A stretch of 43,594 nt of DNA from Kagunavirus PDP21P8, in the sequence record OZ035783.1. One strand, 5' to 3'. Shown here piece by piece: positions 3,181 through 38,715 of this stretch. Each line of letters starts with the position of its first letter. Position 1 is the stretch's first letter. Position numbers and translations under genes: made by a program. The notes below the pieces were generated by a model. The model ran no database searches. It was not told the origin of the DNA and saw nothing but the letters and a program-made list of their open reading frames with translations.

Positions 3181-4224
3181 ATGAGCTTACTTACATCTCT
3201 AATCAGCCACCAGATATGGCTGCAACGCACCGCATCCGGCGAGGTGAAAGACCTCGCGCCGTTCATCCATGAGATGCGGGATGAAATTAAACGGCAGGTG
3301 CTGTTATTCGGTGACGACAGCCGCAGCGCCGCGCGACTGAATAAACTGTTACGTGACCTGGAAGAAGCGCTAACTGGACTTACAGGTGACTGGCAAACAA
3401 AGCTGACAGAAGACCTTAAGGAACTGGCGGCGTATGAGGCTGAGTGGAACGTAAAAACGCTGACGACTAACGTTAACGCGGAATTTGTTACGCCTACCGC
3501 CGAACAAGTGTGGGCCGCCGCCGAGTTCCAGCCCGTATCGTTAAGCGACAAACCGGCCGACTTCGCTAAACTGATGTCGGGCTGGGGTGAAACCGAAGTC
3601 GCGCGCCTTGTAACCGGCGTTAAGATGGGCTTTGTGCAAGGCCAGACAACACGGCAGATTGTTAAGAATATTGTAGGCGCTGGTGGACTAGCGGACATAT
3701 CCGAGCGCAATGCGGCTACTGTAATCCGCACCGCGCTGTCTCACGTGTCAAACGAAGCCCGTAACGAGACGTACCGCCAGAATGACGACATTATCGAGAA
3801 GTACGAGTGGGTGTCTACGCTGGACAGCCGTACCAGTACTATTTGCAGAGCCAGGGACGGGATGACGTGGGAAATTGGTAAAGGGCCAATGCCCCCCGCC
3901 CATCCGAATTGTCGAAGTACCACGGCACCGGTGATAAGTTCCGAGTTCGACTTCCTCGATAAAGGCGCAAAACGCGCGGCTAAGGGTGCAGACGGCGGTA
4001 CTCAGGTAAGCGCAGACACCACTTACTACGAGTTCCTGAAACAACAACCGGCATGGTTTCAGGATGAAGCACTCGGGCCGACCCGCGGTAAGATTTTCCG
4101 CAACAGCGGTATATCACCGGAAGAGTTTCGCGTAATATCTGTAGATGGTTTCGGGAATCCGCTGACGCTTAAGCAGATGGCGGAACTCGATAAACGTGTT
4201 GCTGATTATCTGAAAGGGGAATAA
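3181..4224 (+). CDS. head morphogenesis protein (Mu F / SPP1 gp7-like)
   Basis: ATG 3181 with SD AGGAGGG; C-terminal PAHPNCRSTT motif resembles the conserved H-x-NCRC of Mu F-like proteins; follows portal. Confidence 0.65.
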   Translation: MSLLTSLISHQIWLQRTASGEVKDLAPFIHEMRDEIKRQVLLFGDDSRSAARLNKLLRDLEEALTGLTGDWQTKLTEDLKELAAYEAEWNVKTLTTNVNAEFVTPTAEQVWAAAEFQPVSLSDKPADFAKLMSGWGETEVARLVTGVKMGFVQGQTTRQIVKNIVGAGGLADISERNAATVIRTALSHVSNEARNETYRQNDDIIEKYEWVSTLDSRTSTICRARDGMTWEIGKGPMPPAHPNCRSTTAPVISSEFDFLDKGAKRAAKGADGGTQVSADTTYYEFLKQQPAWFQDEALGPTRGKIFRNSGISPEEFRVISVDGFGNPLTLKQMAELDKRVADYLKGE

Positions 4225-4685
4225 TGATGGGCTTTTTCAAAGTAACTGATGTACCGTCACGTCGCGTAGTCCAGTACGCCCGCGTGTCTGGCTCTGGCGA
4301 GAACGTGGTATTTATTGAAGATGAAAGTGTACTCGGTACACCTGTAGACGATATGCCGTTCGCAGATAAGACCGGTATTGCGCTGCCAGCGGCGGGTATG
4401 CTTTATGAGATTCCGTATCTGGCGGACGCGGGCGATGTGTATTTCTCTGTGCAACCGCAGGACACGGAACTGGCAGACGGCAGCGCAACTATCACTGTCG
4501 AAGTTAAGGCGGGCAAAGCACCGTATGCGCTGACCTGGTACAAAGACGGTAAGGAAGTGGTAAACGCCCCGGAAGAGGCTTTGTCTCTGACGGTTAATGC
4601 GGTGGGTGAATACTTCGTTAAAGTTACCGATGCCGATGGTGTAGAGGCGGTAAGCAAAGCGGCGAAGGTTAATAAGCCAGAATAA
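4224..4685 (+). CDS. Ig-like domain protein
   Basis: C-terminal APYALTWYKDGKEV...GEYFVKVTD resembles I-set Ig fold signature; TAATG overlap with upstream gene. Confidence 0.5.
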   Translation: MMGFFKVTDVPSRRVVQYARVSGSGENVVFIEDESVLGTPVDDMPFADKTGIALPAAGMLYEIPYLADAGDVYFSVQPQDTELADGSATITVEVKAGKAPYALTWYKDGKEVVNAPEEALSLTVNAVGEYFVKVTDADGVEAVSKAAKVNKPE

Positions 4686-4689
4686 ACTG

Positions 4690-4711
4690 AAGCCCCGAAA
4701 GGGGCTTTTTA
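4690..4711 (+). terminator. rho-independent terminator
   Basis: AGCCCC-gaaa-GGGGCT hairpin followed by TTTTT. Confidence 0.6.
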
Positions 4712-5523: not shown

Positions 5524-5605
5524 TTGCCTTGCATGTTGGAATAATTTATTCTTGACATGTAAATCCGGGTGGCCCGGGTTCCAACGTCCAGGGGACATAC
5601 TGACT

Positions 5606-6307
5606 ATGAATCGTTTTTTACGTTATCCGTTCCAGGAAGAAGCTGGGGCAGAAGATAAAGCTGGTGGCGGTGACGCGCCGAAAATGTTCACCGCTGAAGA
5701 AGTTCAGGCGCTGATTGAGAAAGAAGTTGCCGGGCTTAAGGCCAATCAGGAAGCATTGCTGGCGGAGAAGAAAGAAGCCGCTCGTAAAGCAAAAGAGGCC
5801 GAAGAAGAACGGCAGCGCGCGCACCAGGAGGCGTTAAAAGCCGCTGGTAAGATGGACGAGTTCGAAAAGACGATTCGTAGCCAGTATGACCCGGTGTTAG
5901 CCGAGAAAGATGGTCGCATCTCCAAAATGGCAGAGCGTATCCTCGGCAGTGAACGTAAAGCGGTGTTAGGCTCTTTCGCGGGCGACTTTATTACCCCGGA
6001 AGCAGTAGACATTCTTGCTCCGTTCGTTAAGACTGAGTTCGAAGGCGATGACGTGGTTACTAAGTTTGTAGGCGCAGACGGCAATGTAATCACGACTGAC
6101 CCGGAACAGTTCCGCAAATACCTGCGGGAACACAAAGCATTTTCGCATTTGATTAAAGCAAATGCAGCTTCCGGCGGCGGGGCTTCCGGTAGCAAAGGCG
6201 GCGGGGCCGCACCAGCGTTTAAAGACATGAGTGAAGCGGAGCGTTTAGCTCTGTATAAATCGAACCCTGCCGAATTTGAACGGCAACTTAAAGCCCTGAG
6301 GAAATAA
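5606..6307 (+). CDS. scaffolding protein
   Basis: ATG 5606 with SD AGGGGA; Ala/Glu/Lys-rich helical protein directly upstream of the major capsid gene. Confidence 0.55.
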   Translation: MNRFLRYPFQEEAGAEDKAGGGDAPKMFTAEEVQALIEKEVAGLKANQEALLAEKKEAARKAKEAEEERQRAHQEALKAAGKMDEFEKTIRSQYDPVLAEKDGRISKMAERILGSERKAVLGSFAGDFITPEAVDILAPFVKTEFEGDDVVTKFVGADGNVITTDPEQFRKYLREHKAFSHLIKANAASGGGASGSKGGGAAPAFKDMSEAERLALYKSNPAEFERQLKALRK

Positions 6308-8815: not shown

Positions 8816-9430
8816 ATGGCGAAGACTAAAACAGAGATGTTTACCCTTATCGGTGCAAATCTACCCGATAACACCACTGGACTTATTACCCCCGCAGCGT
8901 TGCGCGAGGTGATGACGCAGATGGCGGACTCTCCTATCTATGCCACTCCGGGTGTTAAAGAGGTTGAAGTTCTCCGCGCCGCGTCTACTGTAATACAAGC
9001 GCCCACCGCGGTGGACACAGCATTGCAGTTAACTTTCGGCTCTGCTCAGGGAAGTGCGTCGGACCCTGTAATGATTAATGCCGCAGGGCTTGTTACGTTC
9101 AACACCGCAGGGAACTACGCCGTTCGCATCAAGTTACAGGCCGGGCGCACTGGTGCTAGTGGCACGTCCATACTGTTATCGCGCATTCTCCTTAACGGTG
9201 CTCAGTACGGCTCGCCCGCCGCCACGAAACTGGTCAGCGCCGACGTAACTATTCCGATTGAATCCCGCGTCGTTATTAACCCGACAGCAGGCCAGACGTT
9301 TGCTGTTCAGATTATGCGGGATAGCGCAGGAAGCAACTTCGGTGGCGTATATCCGCAAGCCGCTACCGTGACCGCATGGGGCACAGCGCCATCCGCACTA
9401 CTGGTTATTTCGAGACTGGAGGCCGCGTAA
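8816..9430 (+). CDS. structural protein of unknown function
   Basis: 204 aa ORF, translationally coupled to neighbours. Confidence 0.45.
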   Translation: MAKTKTEMFTLIGANLPDNTTGLITPAALREVMTQMADSPIYATPGVKEVEVLRAASTVIQAPTAVDTALQLTFGSAQGSASDPVMINAAGLVTFNTAGNYAVRIKLQAGRTGASGTSILLSRILLNGAQYGSPAATKLVSADVTIPIESRVVINPTAGQTFAVQIMRDSAGSNFGGVYPQAATVTAWGTAPSALLVISRLEAA

Positions 9431-11873: not shown

Positions 11874-12506
11874 ATGTTTCTGTATGAAGAATTTGAAAAG
11901 ATACCCGCGTCAAAACGGGCGGTATCATACCGTAAAACAATCTGCGGTGTCGGTATCAACGACGCTGATTTTACCGCTAGTATTTTCAACGGCAAAAAGT
12001 CTGTTAATCACCCAGTATATGATATTTGGTATGCGATGATATTCAGGTGCTACCACGGGGTCGCCAAGCACCCAACATACGCAGGTGTGGTAGTGTGCGA
12101 AGACTGGCTATATTTCTCCAACTACTTTAAATGGTATAAAGATAATTACGTAGATTGTTGGCATGTAGACAAGGATTTACTTACAGATGCCAAAGAATAC
12201 TCACCGGAGACATGCATCTTTGTCCCAAGAGTTTTAAACAACTTCCTAACCGACAGCGCAGCGGCCAGAGGAAACCTACCAATAGGCCTTACTTATAGAA
12301 AAACAAACGGCAAGATACGGTGCCGTGTTAACAATCCCATAACCGGGGTACGGGAAAACTTAGGCGATTTTATTGACTTGGACGAAGCCATCAAGGCCAG
12401 AACGTTGCGGAAATTGGAAATAGCAGAAGAACTTAAGCCGCTTATGGATTCCATAGACGGGAGAATATGCCCAAGAGCCGTTTCGGTAATTAATTCACAA
12501 CGATAA
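11874..12506 (+). CDS. AP2-like DNA-binding domain protein, possible homing endonuclease
   Basis: C-terminal GLTYRKTNGKIRCRV...LGDFIDLDEAIKA resembles AP2 domain; gene is visibly AT-richer than flanks; no HNH motif identified. Confidence 0.35.
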   Translation: MFLYEEFEKIPASKRAVSYRKTICGVGINDADFTASIFNGKKSVNHPVYDIWYAMIFRCYHGVAKHPTYAGVVVCEDWLYFSNYFKWYKDNYVDCWHVDKDLLTDAKEYSPETCIFVPRVLNNFLTDSAAARGNLPIGLTYRKTNGKIRCRVNNPITGVRENLGDFIDLDEAIKARTLRKLEIAEELKPLMDSIDGRICPRAVSVINSQR

Positions 12507-23823: not shown

Positions 23824-23961
23824 CTACTCTTCTGATAACTTCTCCAGTACAAACGCCAGTTGCGCATTAGCGGCGTCTCTTTGCTGACGTAGCCGCAGAA
23901 CCTCTTCTTCGAGTTCCTTGATACGTTTTTGCAATGCCGGAATTGGGGCTATGATGTTCAT
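23824..23961 (-). CDS. small coiled-coil protein
   Basis: 45 aa ORF, ATG overlaps helicase stop (ATGA); below track cutoff. Confidence 0.3.
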   Translation of the reverse strand: MNIIAPIPALQKRIKELEEEVLRLRQQRDAANAQLAFVLEKLSEE

Positions 23962-25382
23962 TTCTTACCTCGTCTCTTCATGTAATTAAGCAACTCTTCC
24001 TGGACCGATTTCTTCTCGTCCGTACGCGCCGCAACAACCTCATCCAGCGTGTCTTTAGCAACGATGTGATAGAGGAACACCGGGCGCTCGTGGCCCGCCT
24101 GTTTCTGACGGACCGGGCCTATACGCTCGACAACCTGCAAATAGTGCTCAAGGTTCCAGCCTTGCGAGATGAATGCCAGATGCTGTCCGCCGTCCTGTAA
24201 ATTCAAACCATGACCGGCTGACGCAGGGTGGACACATAAGATTTCGATTTCCCCGCGGTTCCACGCTTCCATCTGCTTATTACCCTTGGCGCCTTTTGCA
24301 AACGCCTGTGCCTGCGGGAATCGCTTAAGGATGCGCTCCAGTTCATGCTTAAACTGATAAGCCACAAGCAACGGTGCGCCCTGTAACTCCTCAACGATAG
24401 ACTCCAGCGCATCCAGTTTCGTGTCGTGCACTTTCTCCCAGTCTTTGGTTGCCTCACCGTCTGGCCCCGACACATATACGGCACCGGAGGCAATCTGCAA
24501 ACACTTTGACGTCTTCGCCGCCGCGTTAGCCGCTTCAACTTCTCCGCTCTCCAGTTCCGCGAATAACTTCTCCTCCATATCGATGTACGCCTGACGCGCC
24601 TTCTTCGGCAGGTCGATTTCAACCGGAACAATAATCGGCGCTTCACACCCGAACCACTCAGCGGCGTCAATCGTGAGGCTTATGTCTTTCATCTTCTGGT
24701 GAATTTCATTATCCGCGCCCGGGCGTGCGTGGTACTCCCGCGCCATCGCCGACTTACCTTTCTGTACCGAGTTAAACCAGCGGTCGGTGAATGCCGTGTA
24801 GGAAGAACCGAGGCGCTCACCAGCGTCGATAAACCAGTTCTGACCCCACAGGTCTTTGAGGCCGTTTGGCGACGGCGTACCTGTCAGGTTAATGAACCGC
24901 TTAACCTTGCCGAACGCCACTTTGCTGAGTGCCTTCGCGCGCTTGCTGCCACCAGAACGGCTACGGAAAGATTTAAGTTTCGTGCTTTCATCGGCAACGA
25001 TAACCGTAAAAGGCCAGTCGTCTTTGCCGTAGTAGTCAATCAGCCACTCGATAACTTCGTAGTTGGTACACACCACGTTAGCATCTGACTCCAGCGCCGC
25101 GATGCGGCGTTTCTCTGAACCTGTCGCATCTACGACACGCAGGCACGGGAATCGCCATTTCTCTTGTTCTGCGGGCCATGTGCCGGACGCAACGCGCAGC
25201 GGGGCGAGGATTAACACGCGGTCGTCATCATTAAGCCGACCATTACGTAACAGTCGGTTTAACGCCCACAGTACGCTGCCGGTCTTCCCGGCGCCCATGC
25301 TTGCCCATATGTTACAGCGATTGTGCTGCAACATGAACGAGGTCATGAGCTTCTGGTACTCGCGCCTTTGAAACTTAGACAT
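23958..25382 (-). CDS. SNF2/DEAD-like helicase
   Basis: Walker A MGAGKTGS, DEST box; ATG 25382 preceded by GAGG; longer GTG start 25415 possible. Confidence 0.7.
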   Translation of the reverse strand: MSKFQRREYQKLMTSFMLQHNRCNIWASMGAGKTGSVLWALNRLLRNGRLNDDDRVLILAPLRVASGTWPAEQEKWRFPCLRVVDATGSEKRRIAALESDANVVCTNYEVIEWLIDYYGKDDWPFTVIVADESTKLKSFRSRSGGSKRAKALSKVAFGKVKRFINLTGTPSPNGLKDLWGQNWFIDAGERLGSSYTAFTDRWFNSVQKGKSAMAREYHARPGADNEIHQKMKDISLTIDAAEWFGCEAPIIVPVEIDLPKKARQAYIDMEEKLFAELESGEVEAANAAAKTSKCLQIASGAVYVSGPDGEATKDWEKVHDTKLDALESIVEELQGAPLLVAYQFKHELERILKRFPQAQAFAKGAKGNKQMEAWNRGEIEILCVHPASAGHGLNLQDGGQHLAFISQGWNLEHYLQVVERIGPVRQKQAGHERPVFLYHIVAKDTLDEVVAARTDEKKSVQEELLNYMKRRGKK

Positions 25383-26058
25383 GATTGGCCTCATGAACTG
25401 CTTTTGCGAAACCACGCGGGGTAAGGCTGCGTATTGTTTTTGTCCTCACCGATTTACCGCCTAATTTATTGTGTTGGTCGGAGTACCCATCAACCACGGC
25501 GACACATGATTTAACGGGCATCACAAAACCGTTACCCGCCCAAATACATGTCTTCTTAGGGTACGCGTCCCGCGGTTTTATGTATTCGGGGAACATTGGG
25601 TGCGTGTCGTCTTCGGGTAAATAGCCGCCGTATTCGTACGGATTGAACGAATAGTCAGGCTTGCGCCATAAAGACGAAAGAACGCTAACCGGGTTCTCAA
25701 TCATATAAGGTACGTTGTACTTTTTAGCCAGACGCGCAGCCACTTTGCATGTAATCACGGCCTCTACCTGAAAAGTTGGATTCTTCTTCCGCTTCGTTTC
25801 GAAATGCGCTGCGCCGCTAACAGCTAAATCTGTGCACGGAGGGAACGCAAAAATAATATCCGGCGCAACCTCGAAGTCGAATTTATTGTCAATCCACGCG
25901 TTTATATAGTGGATGTTCTCGTGTTCAACTTTTGCGCCCAATCGCGCGTAGTCGCCGTGGTCGGCACCGTCGTAGTTGAAACAATAGCAAGTATGGCCCG
26001 CTTCCGCCCACGGTTGGGCCATGAGGCCCGAACCGTCGAACAATGACCAGATAATCAT
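25375..26058 (-). CDS. DNA (cytosine-5)-methyltransferase-like protein, compact
   Basis: 227 aa; LFDGSG (motif I), FPPC (motif IV Pro-Cys), MIENP (motif VI ENV-like) with canonical spacing; no room for a normal target-recognition domain. Confidence 0.5.
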   Translation of the reverse strand: MIIWSLFDGSGLMAQPWAEAGHTCYCFNYDGADHGDYARLGAKVEHENIHYINAWIDNKFDFEVAPDIIFAFPPCTDLAVSGAAHFETKRKKNPTFQVEAVITCKVAARLAKKYNVPYMIENPVSVLSSLWRKPDYSFNPYEYGGYLPEDDTHPMFPEYIKPRDAYPKKTCIWAGNGFVMPVKSCVAVVDGYSDQHNKLGGKSVRTKTIRSLTPRGFAKAVHEANHV

Positions 26059-26246
26059 TTCGCCACCAGAACTAACTCTTTACGCCCGAACGCCGTAACG
26101 TTACCGGTTACGTCTTCGATAACCAGTTTACCGTTCGACTCTACGTACACCGTATCAACGGCAACAGGGCGACGGGTCTTAACATTGAAAATCATGTCGC
26201 CCGGTACGATGTCACGTGCTGGTTTGCGGTCGTATTCGTGTTTCAT
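26055..26246 (-). CDS. hypothetical protein
   Basis: 63 aa, ATGA-coupled to methyltransferase-like gene; SD AAGGAA. Confidence 0.45.
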   Translation of the reverse strand: MKHEYDRKPARDIVPGDMIFNVKTRRPVAVDTVYVESNGKLVIEDVTGNVTAFGRKELVLVAK

Positions 26247-26285
26247 TTCTCAATTCCTTATAGTTAAGGCCCCGAAGGGCCTGTA

Positions 26286-26540
26286 TTAGTTAGATAATTC
26301 GGCTTGAACTTGCTTAATAAGTTCTCCAGCCGTTGTGAAGTCTACGGACAGCCGTTTAGCTACGTCTTCCGCAAGCACTTTGCGGCCAACCGACCCGAAA
26401 CCCAGGATACGGTTTACTTCCGAAACCTTCATATACCATGAGTAATTAACTGATGCCCCTGTGTACTTACAGATTCGAACAGATGAATCGATTGAACCCA
26501 TAATCATGGTGTTTACTGACAGTTGAAGTTCGATAGCCAT
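26286..26540 (-). CDS. hypothetical protein
   Basis: 84 aa; SD AAGGAA; own promoter at 26575-26603. Confidence 0.45.
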   Translation of the reverse strand: MAIELQLSVNTMIMGSIDSSVRICKYTGASVNYSWYMKVSEVNRILGFGSVGRKVLAEDVAKRLSVDFTTAGELIKQVQAELSN

Positions 26541-32199: not shown

Positions 32200-32733
32200 T
32201 TATTCTTCTTCGAAGTACTTGTTCTTGATTGCCGTCAGGCGTTCCAGGTATTCAGCCAGGTCTTCGTCTTTAATCGCGGCAATCTTCATTTTCTTACCGG
32301 TGAACTCTTCCAGCAGTTCATCGGAAGCATCGCACGCGGCATCGCTCGGACCTTCGTTAATTGCGTCGTCGATAGCCTGAATCTGGTCACGCAGAGACTG
32401 GTAATCGACTTCTTCTTTCTCTTCTTCCGGCTCTGGCGTCGGCTCCTCTACTTTAGCTTTACGTGGCTTACGTTTAGGCTTCTCTTCTTCTTCTTCTGGT
32501 TTAGTGTCAACGACGTCTTCACCTTCTACCGGGATTTCTTTTTTAATGCTGGATTTTTGTAATTCTAATGTATGTTCGAGTTCAAGTTTCTCTTTAGCCA
32601 CCTCGTGCTTGGCAATGGCGATATTTAGTTTTGTGTCCAGTTCTTTCGATGATGCTTGTTTCACGCTATTCGCAGCAATCAGTTCATGCGCAACTACGAA
32701 ACGTTCCAGTAATACTAAGAATTTCTCTAACAT
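32200..32733 (-). CDS. acidic coiled-coil protein
   Basis: 177 aa, Glu/Lys-rich; SD AGGAG; first gene downstream of promoter 32765-32793. Confidence 0.5.
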   Translation of the reverse strand: MLEKFLVLLERFVVAHELIAANSVKQASSKELDTKLNIAIAKHEVAKEKLELEHTLELQKSSIKKEIPVEGEDVVDTKPEEEEEKPKRKPRKAKVEEPTPEPEEEKEEVDYQSLRDQIQAIDDAINEGPSDAACDASDELLEEFTGKKMKIAAIKDEDLAEYLERLTAIKNKYFEEE

Positions 32734-37876: not shown

Positions 37877-38024
37877 TTTCGTGGTGCAAGCAATGTACGC
37901 TGAGGAAATGGCAAAAAGTATGTTAGAGCAAACATTACATTTCGCTAAGCTGCAAGGGTTCGACGTACAGACAGTAGGCGACGAAATAGTATTGACCGAG
38001 AAGTCGGAGAACGGCGATGAGTAA
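37869..38024 (+). CDS. small hypothetical protein
   Basis: 51 aa, overlapping neighbours by 8 nt on each side. Confidence 0.3.
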   Translation: MNNFVVQAMYAEEMAKSMLEQTLHFAKLQGFDVQTVGDEIVLTEKSENGDE

Positions 38025-38715
38025 CAATGACGCAGTAATCGAGTTCCTGTTTAACCAACTACAGCAGCAGCTAACGAACAACCCATACAAGCAACAGTGC
38101 GAAGACCTGGCGCATGAGGTGCAGTCACTTAAGAATCAGTTACGTGATGCTTCGGCGCAGATTAAGGAGTTGCAGGAAGACAACATAAGGAAATCTGAGC
38201 ACATATCGCACCTGTCGGGACTGGTGGACGAGTTGATGGGGACTATAACGTTAATGAACGGGGACGTTGAGGCTTACAAAGTTCTACGCAAATGTGCGTG
38301 CGCCTATGGGCAATCCGGTTGTCGCGACGACGCCGCTCATATCGAGAAATCGTGGATTGAGCACGCTGGCGCCGCATGCCCTGTACCGGACGATACTGTT
38401 GTTGATATTAAATTCCGAAACGGCAAAATGGAAAGTAATACCAAAGCGCTATGGTGGAGTTGGGGCCTAAATGGCGGACCATACGAAATTGTTGCGTACC
38501 GTGTTGCCGCGCAACAATGCAATAAGGACGATACTCGTGAGTGCGCGCATGATTGGGTGCTGGACGAAAAAGGGGACTACTTCATTTGCGCTAAATGCGG
38601 TAAGCAAGAAGCTGAATTAATTGATTGCCGACACACTAATACCGTTGGTTTGCGTAAGGGTTTTGCGCCGGGGTTTACTAAAAAGTGTCTGGATTGCGGG
38701 GCTAAACTGAAATGA
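38017..38715 (+). CDS. coiled-coil / zinc-ribbon protein (paralog family)
   Basis: N-terminal coiled coil; YGQSGCR motif; C-terminal C-x-H ... C-x-x-C-G-K ribbons. Confidence 0.5.
   Translation: MSNNDAVIEFLFNQLQQQLTNNPYKQQCEDLAHEVQSLKNQLRDASAQIKELQEDNIRKSEHISHLSGLVDELMGTITLMNGDVEAYKVLRKCACAYGQSGCRDDAAHIEKSWIEHAGAACPVPDDTVVDIKFRNGKMESNTKALWWSWGLNGGPYEIVAYRVAAQQCNKDDTRECAHDWVLDEKGDYFICAKCGKQEAELIDCRHTNTVGLRKGFAPGFTKKCLDCGAKLK

Follow-up and report, generated by a model that had tools for sequence, protein, structure and literature searches.

The 43,594-nucleotide sequence of Kagunavirus PDP21P8 (OZ035783.1; this whole stretch is referred to below as the window) very probably encodes an orphan, S-adenosylmethionine (AdoMet)-dependent DNA cytosine-C5 methyltransferase of a compact phage ‘Dcm-like’ family (PHROG 757). 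The gene was delineated from the list of open reading frames (ORFs), the match of its product to PHROG 757, and its identity to a gene of Escherichia phage hz69:

25375..26058, minus strand: compact Dcm-like C5-cytosine DNA methyltransferase coding sequence, 227 aa

An initial annotation had reported an ORF at 25375-26058 encoding 227 aa, as the ORF list confirms, without giving the strand. From comparison with its relatives, we infer the activity, target site and biological role of this protein.

The activity assignment draws on an orthologue in phages KarlJaspers and K42. The KarlJaspers gene bas06_0055 (711 bp, encoding 236 aa and annotated as ‘Dcm-like C5 cytosine methyltransferase’) specifies a protein with 57% full-length identity to the one described here (E=5e-96). 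K42 is 95.4% identical to KarlJaspers/Bas06 (10.1101/2023.08.16.553469), and residues C82, E128, K175 and K176 of K42 Dcm align to C75, E121, K168 and K169 here, with a constant offset of 7. The K42 gene came to light through retron Ec86: four of four K42 escapers of the retron had a disrupted 711-bp dcm gene, expression of K42 Dcm sickened Ec86-containing cells, and high levels of 5-methylcytosine (5mC) were detected by mass spectrometry after liquid chromatography (LC-MS) on the multicopy single-stranded DNA (msDNA) solely with the wild-type enzyme (10.1101/2023.08.16.553469). A C82A/E128A/K175A/K176A quadruple mutant, for which residues were chosen by superposing an AlphaFold model on DNMT3A, was inactive, and Dcm is encoded by 34 of 35 Ec86-sensitive phages (10.1101/2023.08.16.553469). 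The connection between K42 Dcm and Ec86 has been accepted in later literature. The full-length identity and shared catalytic residues place the PDP21P8 gene in a known, partly characterised family. The initial description of the product as C5-cytosine-methyltransferase-like is therefore upheld, as the orthologue, which is 57% identical and shares the catalytic residues, forms 5mC on DNA in vivo. The same 5mC product disfavours the alternative that had been offered, a different nucleotide- or DNA-modifying enzyme on the same fold. The methylase trigger of Dazbog is of no help here, as it concerns the unrelated multispecific SPR enzyme.

Motifs of C5 methyltransferases, or segments resembling them, are found along the protein in the following order:

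26026..26043, minus strand: motif I, LFDGSG (residues 6-11), the presumed AdoMet-binding loop, placed by hhalign onto DLFAGLGG of M.HhaI

25834..25845, minus strand: motif IV, FPPC (residues 72-75), with C75 the presumed nucleophile; the reverse complement of gcacggagggaa reads TTC CCT CCG TGC

25690..25698, minus strand: motif VI, ENP (residues 121-123), with E121 the presumed cytosine-protonating glutamate; the reverse complement of cgggttctc reads GAG AAC CCG

25549..25563, minus strand: motif VIII-like YPKKT (residues 166-170), in which lysines replace the canonical RxR, preceding a strand at 170-175 in the AlphaFold2 model

25432..25533, minus strand: linker (residues 176-209) in place of the target-recognition domain (TRD) and motif IX, assigned by spacing; it has the lowest predicted local distance difference test (pLDDT) values of the model, 72-81, and its length and sequence vary across the family

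25384..25431, minus strand: motif X-like C-terminal segment RSLTPRGFAKAVHEAN (residues 210-225), assigned by conservation, with a helix at 215-225 in the AlphaFold2 model

The distances from motif I to the cysteine (68 residues), from the cysteine to the glutamate (46) and from the glutamate to motif VIII (47) are close to the 63, 38 and 44 residues of M.HhaI, for which the reference sequence used is identical at 327/327 residues to PDB 10mh_A. The initial annotation had recognised motifs I, IV and VI at the spacing of C5 methyltransferases and a motif IV reading PCT rather than PCQ. Both points are borne out: in the translation FPPC is followed by T-D, not Q, and hhalign aligned it to GFPC of M.HhaI. 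Between motif VIII and the motif X-like segment there are 42 residues, compared with 140 in M.HhaI and 86 in the methyltransferase of phage Bas70, so the deficit of ~100 residues lies exactly at the usual place of the TRD and motif IX. As regards a canonical TRD, the earlier statement that the protein has no room for one is right, with ~34 linker residues left. These residues (176-209), together with a family-specific segment at 133-167, could serve as a mini recognition element.

When family profiles were compared by hhalign with single canonical sequences (M.HhaI and the Bas70 methyltransferase), only motifs I-IV or motif IV were aligned, and none of these profile alignments reached the motif X-like segment. 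The motif VIII and X assignments thus rest on pattern, spacing and secondary structure. Compared by eye with GNAVPPxLAxAI and with GNAIVPQVAAEFIKAF of Bas70, the C-terminal R-S-L-T-P-R-G-F-A-K-A-V helix appears to correspond to motif X.

Structure prediction agrees with assignment to the C5 methyltransferases. The AlphaFold2 model, built with a 41-sequence alignment, has a pLDDT of 89.9 and a predicted TM-score (pTM) of 0.88. Its top Foldseek matches in the PDB are DNMT3A/3B and M.HaeIII (E ~1e-6), and in the structure comparison DNA-specific methyltransferases outscore DNMT2. As modelled, the protein has the C5-methyltransferase catalytic-domain fold.

The protein matches the PHROG 757 ‘DNA methyltransferase’ profile over residues 1-226 (E=6e-86). 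It is 100% identical to the ‘DNA cytosine methyltransferase’ of hz69, and close relatives annotate the gene likewise. A search of 5.8 billion proteins recovered 7,105 homologues, and an exhaustive search yielded 2,005 clusters at 50% identity; among the 150 best representatives, lengths are mostly 210-260 aa. Small size is thus common to the family, and compactness is a family property rather than a truncation in this phage. By tblastn, the family occurs in 1,549 of 50,697 phage records, with hosts of the gene that include Drexlerviridae, Dhillonvirus, Vequintavirinae, Krischvirus, Klebsiella Webervirus-type phages and others; among the matches are BASEL phages in which the gene is annotated as ‘Dcm-like C5 cytosine methyltransferase’. 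Literature on methylation in Kagunavirus, Guernseyvirinae or Jerseyvirus yielded annotation-level mentions only. The gene might have been an unusual find, as the initial annotation allowed. Instead, it belongs to an already known, partly characterised family that is widespread and routinely annotated; the finding is real, not new.

In an alignment of 75 representatives (33-62% identity to the query), C75, E121, P123, P140, Y166, W173 and P181 are invariant, and F72, P73, G82, N122, K168, T170, R210, P214, G216 and A220 are conserved in at least 90%. Two features of this alignment, the near-invariant R210 and the degenerate motif I loop, fit no textbook C5 methyltransferase. The domain also occurs in fusions. 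In P0250 (563 aa), the compact domain is followed by a C-terminal Dam-type N6-adenine methyltransferase (PF02086, E=2.5e-48), and in P0257 (348 aa) it is joined to an HNH_2 nuclease domain. A related domain (29% identity) lies inside a 1397-aa phage ‘Helicase/UvrB’ protein in BFVD (A0A6J5SE15).

The protein would use standard C5 chemistry on a flipped-out cytosine, in which C75 attacks C6, E121 protonates N3, and the methyl group is passed from AdoMet to cytosine C5. K168/K169 and the Y-x-K-x-T segment would stand in for the motif VIII arginines. The protein appears to be essentially the large catalytic domain, with the small domain (TRD and motif IX) shrunk to the ~34-residue linker. Given this reduction, sequence reading would have to come from the linker, the catalytic loop, segment 133-167, or oligomerisation. 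DNMT3A offsets a small TRD by oligomerisation. The gene is probably expressed together with replication genes and translationally coupled to an SNF2 helicase, so the enzyme probably methylates new phage DNA. The likely gain, as predicted, is protection from some cytosine-sensitive restriction systems, and the cost may be that the methylation is sensed by defences such as retron Ec86/Eco1.

Several observations weigh against assignment as a Dcm-like C5 methyltransferase, or against the target site that the name implies. All of the activity evidence is for the 57%-identical orthologue, from a phage of the Drexlerviridae. Pfam PF00145 is matched at 16.2 bits, below the gathering cutoff of 22 (E=0.0074, residues 3-101), and 3 of the 75 family representatives match it at E<=0.01. 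An NCBIfam search gave no match for the protein, and neither the protein by itself nor the family profile matched a methyltransferase in sequence searches of PDB chains. The motif I glycine loop (residues 7-11) is poorly conserved in the 75 representatives, where it reads, for example, LFNKSP, LFAYTT or LCNESR. The Q-x-R-x-R arginines of motif VIII are absent, with Y-P-K-K-T at 166-170 instead. The CCWGG site of K42 Dcm was taken from E. coli Dcm, not mapped, and its sole support is that mutation of CCTGG in the msDNA abolished Ec86 defence (10.1101/2023.08.16.553469). When the phage enzyme was missing, little 5mC was present on msDNA in the same dcm+ host (10.1101/2023.08.16.553469), so the site or substrate preference of the phage enzyme may differ from that of host Dcm. 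For CCWGG, the window has slightly fewer sites than a maximal-order Markov model predicts (88 observed, 116 expected, ratio 0.76), a deviation that is uninformative. Restriction evasion, named by the initial annotation as a possible purpose, is not supported by the BASEL work, where these methyltransferase genes have no simple link with restriction resistance in Drexlerviridae and Kagunavirus isolates are highly sensitive to restriction-modification (RM) systems. The BASEL RM data do not bear directly on the PDP21P8 variant: the BASEL Kagunavirus Bas70 carries another methyltransferase, and of the 53 records that closely match the gene at the DNA level none is a BASEL Kagunavirus.

These points leave some room for an enzyme that is a C5 methyltransferase but not of the CCWGG type. 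Lacking a TRD, it would have very short, degenerate or structure-dependent specificity, for instance for hairpins, single-stranded DNA or forks offered by the neighbouring helicase, and would mark replicating DNA broadly instead of shielding a single restriction site. We consider this unlikely, but the most credible of the alternatives. It would suit a protein with only 42 residues between motif VIII and the motif X-like helix, and the phage enzyme methylated an msDNA stem-loop that host Dcm largely spared in a dcm+ strain. Proximity to helicases is also consistent with it, as helicase adjacency recurs across several phage lineages and the A0A6J5SE15 protein carries a related domain within a helicase. 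The family lies beside or near helicase and replication genes in Guernseyvirinae, Dhillonvirus, Vequintavirus and Drexlerviridae, a setting that also counts in favour of the main assignment. In Dhillonvirus the order is helicase then methyltransferase, and in Vequintavirus it is methyltransferase then primase/helicase; the genes overlap in both. However, in Krischvirus JEP8 and Arthrobacter phage Coral the methyltransferase gene has no adjacent helicase, and adjacency elsewhere may simply come from a common replication module. The association with helicases hints at activity on replicating DNA, and is not universal. Two further results argue against broad marking. The loss of Ec86 defence upon mutation of the msDNA CCTGG is consistent with site specificity, and the sensitivity of Kagunavirus and Drexlerviridae phages to several RM systems argues against dense methylation.

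A bolder version is more doubtful still: that this TRD-less family, unlike E. coli Dcm in its reading of CCWGG, has minimal or structure-dependent specificity (for hairpin, single-stranded or fork DNA passed on by the coupled helicase), or that it accepts an alternative cofactor such as carboxy-S-adenosylmethionine (Cx-SAM) via the conserved R210 next to the cofactor pocket. Should either be true, the family would be more than a small Dcm: a class of phage cytosine modifier with a mechanism of its own.

That the enzyme transfers some other group in place of methyl, such as carboxymethyl from Cx-SAM, yielding 5-carboxymethylcytosine as in phage CmoX, seems improbable. E. coli makes Cx-SAM via CmoA. 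The PPC of motif IV, rather than FPC, recalls the ‘SPPC’ of CmoX, and the near-invariant R210 adjoins the equivalent of HhaI N304, the site of the Cx-SAM-binding arginine of CmoX. However, the motif here is FPPC, not SPPC, with F72 at least 90% conserved, and alignment of the GNAVP and RSLTP patterns puts S211, not R210, at the N304 position. The orthologue’s product on msDNA was 5mC by LC-MS, and no CmoA-like or amide-ligase gene is present in the hz69 annotation or among the ten window ORFs scanned against Pfam. CmoX genes typically accompany a phage cmoA (PMC12783734).

Action mainly on RNA (for example on tRNA cytosine, like DNMT2) or on free nucleotides is very improbable. The missing TRD does resemble enzymes that do not read duplex DNA sequence, but it is the DNA portion of msDNA that the orthologue methylates, one family member carries a fused Dam domain, itself a DNA methyltransferase, and DNA-specific methyltransferases outscore DNMT2 in the structure comparison; moreover, Kagunavirus DNA is cleavable by RM systems, so there is no wholesale replacement of cytosine via the nucleotide pool. 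An inactive methyltransferase-like protein that binds DNA or counters defences is just as improbable. In its favour, the score is under the Pfam threshold, motifs VIII and X are non-canonical, and some family members have a degenerate motif I. Against it, all 75 representatives keep the catalytic Cys and Glu, the FDGSG loop is intact in this protein, and the effect of the orthologue needs the catalytic residues.

The Dcm-like methyltransferase gene sits between two genes on the same strand:

23958..25382, minus strand: SNF2-type DNA helicase, downstream (PF00176, E=1e-12); its ATG at 25382 overlaps the methyltransferase stop

26055..26246, minus strand: 63-aa ORF to which no function is assigned, upstream, with no Pfam match; its stop overlaps the methyltransferase ATG (ATGA)

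The TAA stop of the methyltransferase (25375-25377) lies within ATGTCTAA, and the helicase ATG (25382..25380) is in the same string. The mechanical ORF list opens the helicase at a GTG at 25415 (23958-25415, minus strand). In SZH-1 and hz69, the helicase is annotated as 1425 bp, with the same start and the same overlap with the methyltransferase. Following these annotations, the true start is likely ATG 25382 (MSKFQRREYQ...), which gives a 474-aa SNF2-related protein and an 8-nt overlap. The module order in hz69 and SZH-1 is DNA polymerase, small ORFs, VRR-NUC, two small ORFs, methyltransferase and helicase. The initial annotation’s view that the gene is in the replication operon and coupled to the helicase is supported by the overlap of stop and ATG and by the gene order of these relatives. 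A split enzyme with the 63-aa ORF as its second subunit was considered and rejected, as that ORF has no Pfam match and persists in phage BUCT789, which is without the methyltransferase.

The 3.4-kb neighbourhood is 97.6% identical to hz69 and 94% identical to SZH-1 (Kagunavirus, Guernseyvirinae), and identity is uneven along it. The methyltransferase gene is 100% identical in hz69, AV104 and LM08P2, whereas the helicase is 95% identical in hz69 and 92% in AV104. Relative to SZH-1, a ~950-bp block (~25400-26330) that holds the methyltransferase gene and the 63-aa ORF is ~100% identical, and for the helicase beside it identity is mostly 86-93% and falls to 71% at the lowest. The ~100% identity of the methyltransferase gene against the lower identity of the helicase suggests recent recombinational exchange of the cassette, which looks to have spread by this route.

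The slot at 25383-26054 is polymorphic in Kagunaviruses, where it holds the compact Dcm-like gene, nothing, or a canonical methyltransferase. In BUCT789, the helicase comes straight after the small ORF (at positions 1783-1790 of the compared stretch), and in Bas70 the slot is occupied by a different C5 methyltransferase, Bas70_0036, of 261 aa (positions 3926-4711 of the compared Bas70 stretch). The helicase gene is at least 80% identical in ~450 records, and a closely related methyltransferase gene is found in just 53-65. On these sequence comparisons, the methyltransferase gene is an accessory cassette.

No second methyltransferase, restriction enzyme or CmoA-like gene is found in the annotation of hz69, and the ten window ORFs scanned against Pfam gave no match to a restriction enzyme, methyltransferase or CmoA-type family. 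The earlier designation of the gene as an orphan stands, with no restriction enzyme in the hz69 annotation or among those ten ORFs. ORFs of 177-251 aa without a Pfam match (E<=0.001) are located at 38017-38715 (plus strand), 5552-6307 (plus), 8816-9430 (plus), 11874-12506 (plus) and 32200-32733 (minus).

Site frequencies in the window show a further pattern. GATC is nearly missing from positions 1-43594 (5 sites vs ~143 expected under the same Markov model, ratio 0.03, z = -11.6), and CTAG is depleted over the same span (31 vs 79 expected). The hz69 annotation contains no Dam-like gene. The GATC avoidance points to strong selection against recognition of the Dam/MutH or DpnII/MboI type.

An annotation of the gene as Dcm-like C5-cytosine DNA methyltransferase is warranted with good confidence. 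The phage carries it as an exchangeable methyltransferase cassette and is a probable target of methylation-sensing defences, given that a close orthologue triggers retron Ec86/Eco1.

How does the protein compare with better-known enzymes? Among its closest structural counterparts are the catalytic domains of DNMT3A and DNMT3B (for example PDB 6u8p, 4u7t, 6f57), which share just 12-17% identity with it. DNMT3 enzymes have kept the RxR of motif VIII, motif IX, and a TRD loop that is tens of residues long, whereas the protein here is without canonical versions of these; they also differ in being eukaryotic enzymes with CpG specificity, under the control of additional domains. Motifs I, IV, VI and VIII follow each other in an order and at distances like those of M.HhaI and E. 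coli Dcm-type enzymes (PF00145). Relative to these, the stretch from motif VIII to motif X of the PDP21P8 protein is ~100 residues shorter, and the protein has PCT-D for PCQ, ENP for ENV, K-K-T for R-x-R, and R-S for the G-N of motif X. SpCmoX (PDB 8yf3; PMC12783734) is a 333-aa enzyme that recognises a GC motif, has SPPC and an arginine at the HhaI N304 position, and uses Cx-SAM from a co-encoded CmoA; the protein here is shorter, has FPPC, and is without a CmoA-like companion gene in the hz69 annotation or among the ten scanned window ORFs. Bas70_0036 is also a small orphan phage C5 methyltransferase encoded between the 63-aa ORF and the helicase, but it represents another lineage: its motifs are the canonical SPPCQ, RNR and GNAIVP, and its sequence is directly similar to that of M.HhaI (E=1e-7). 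The nearest parallel is the Dcm of K42 and KarlJaspers. These phages are Drexlerviridae and the present phage is of the Guernseyvirinae, and the KarlJaspers gene lies two small ORFs upstream of the helicase, whereas the Kagunavirus genes overlap instead. Nevertheless, the two enzymes belong to the same family, are similar in size (236 vs 227 aa), and are alike in having no TRD.

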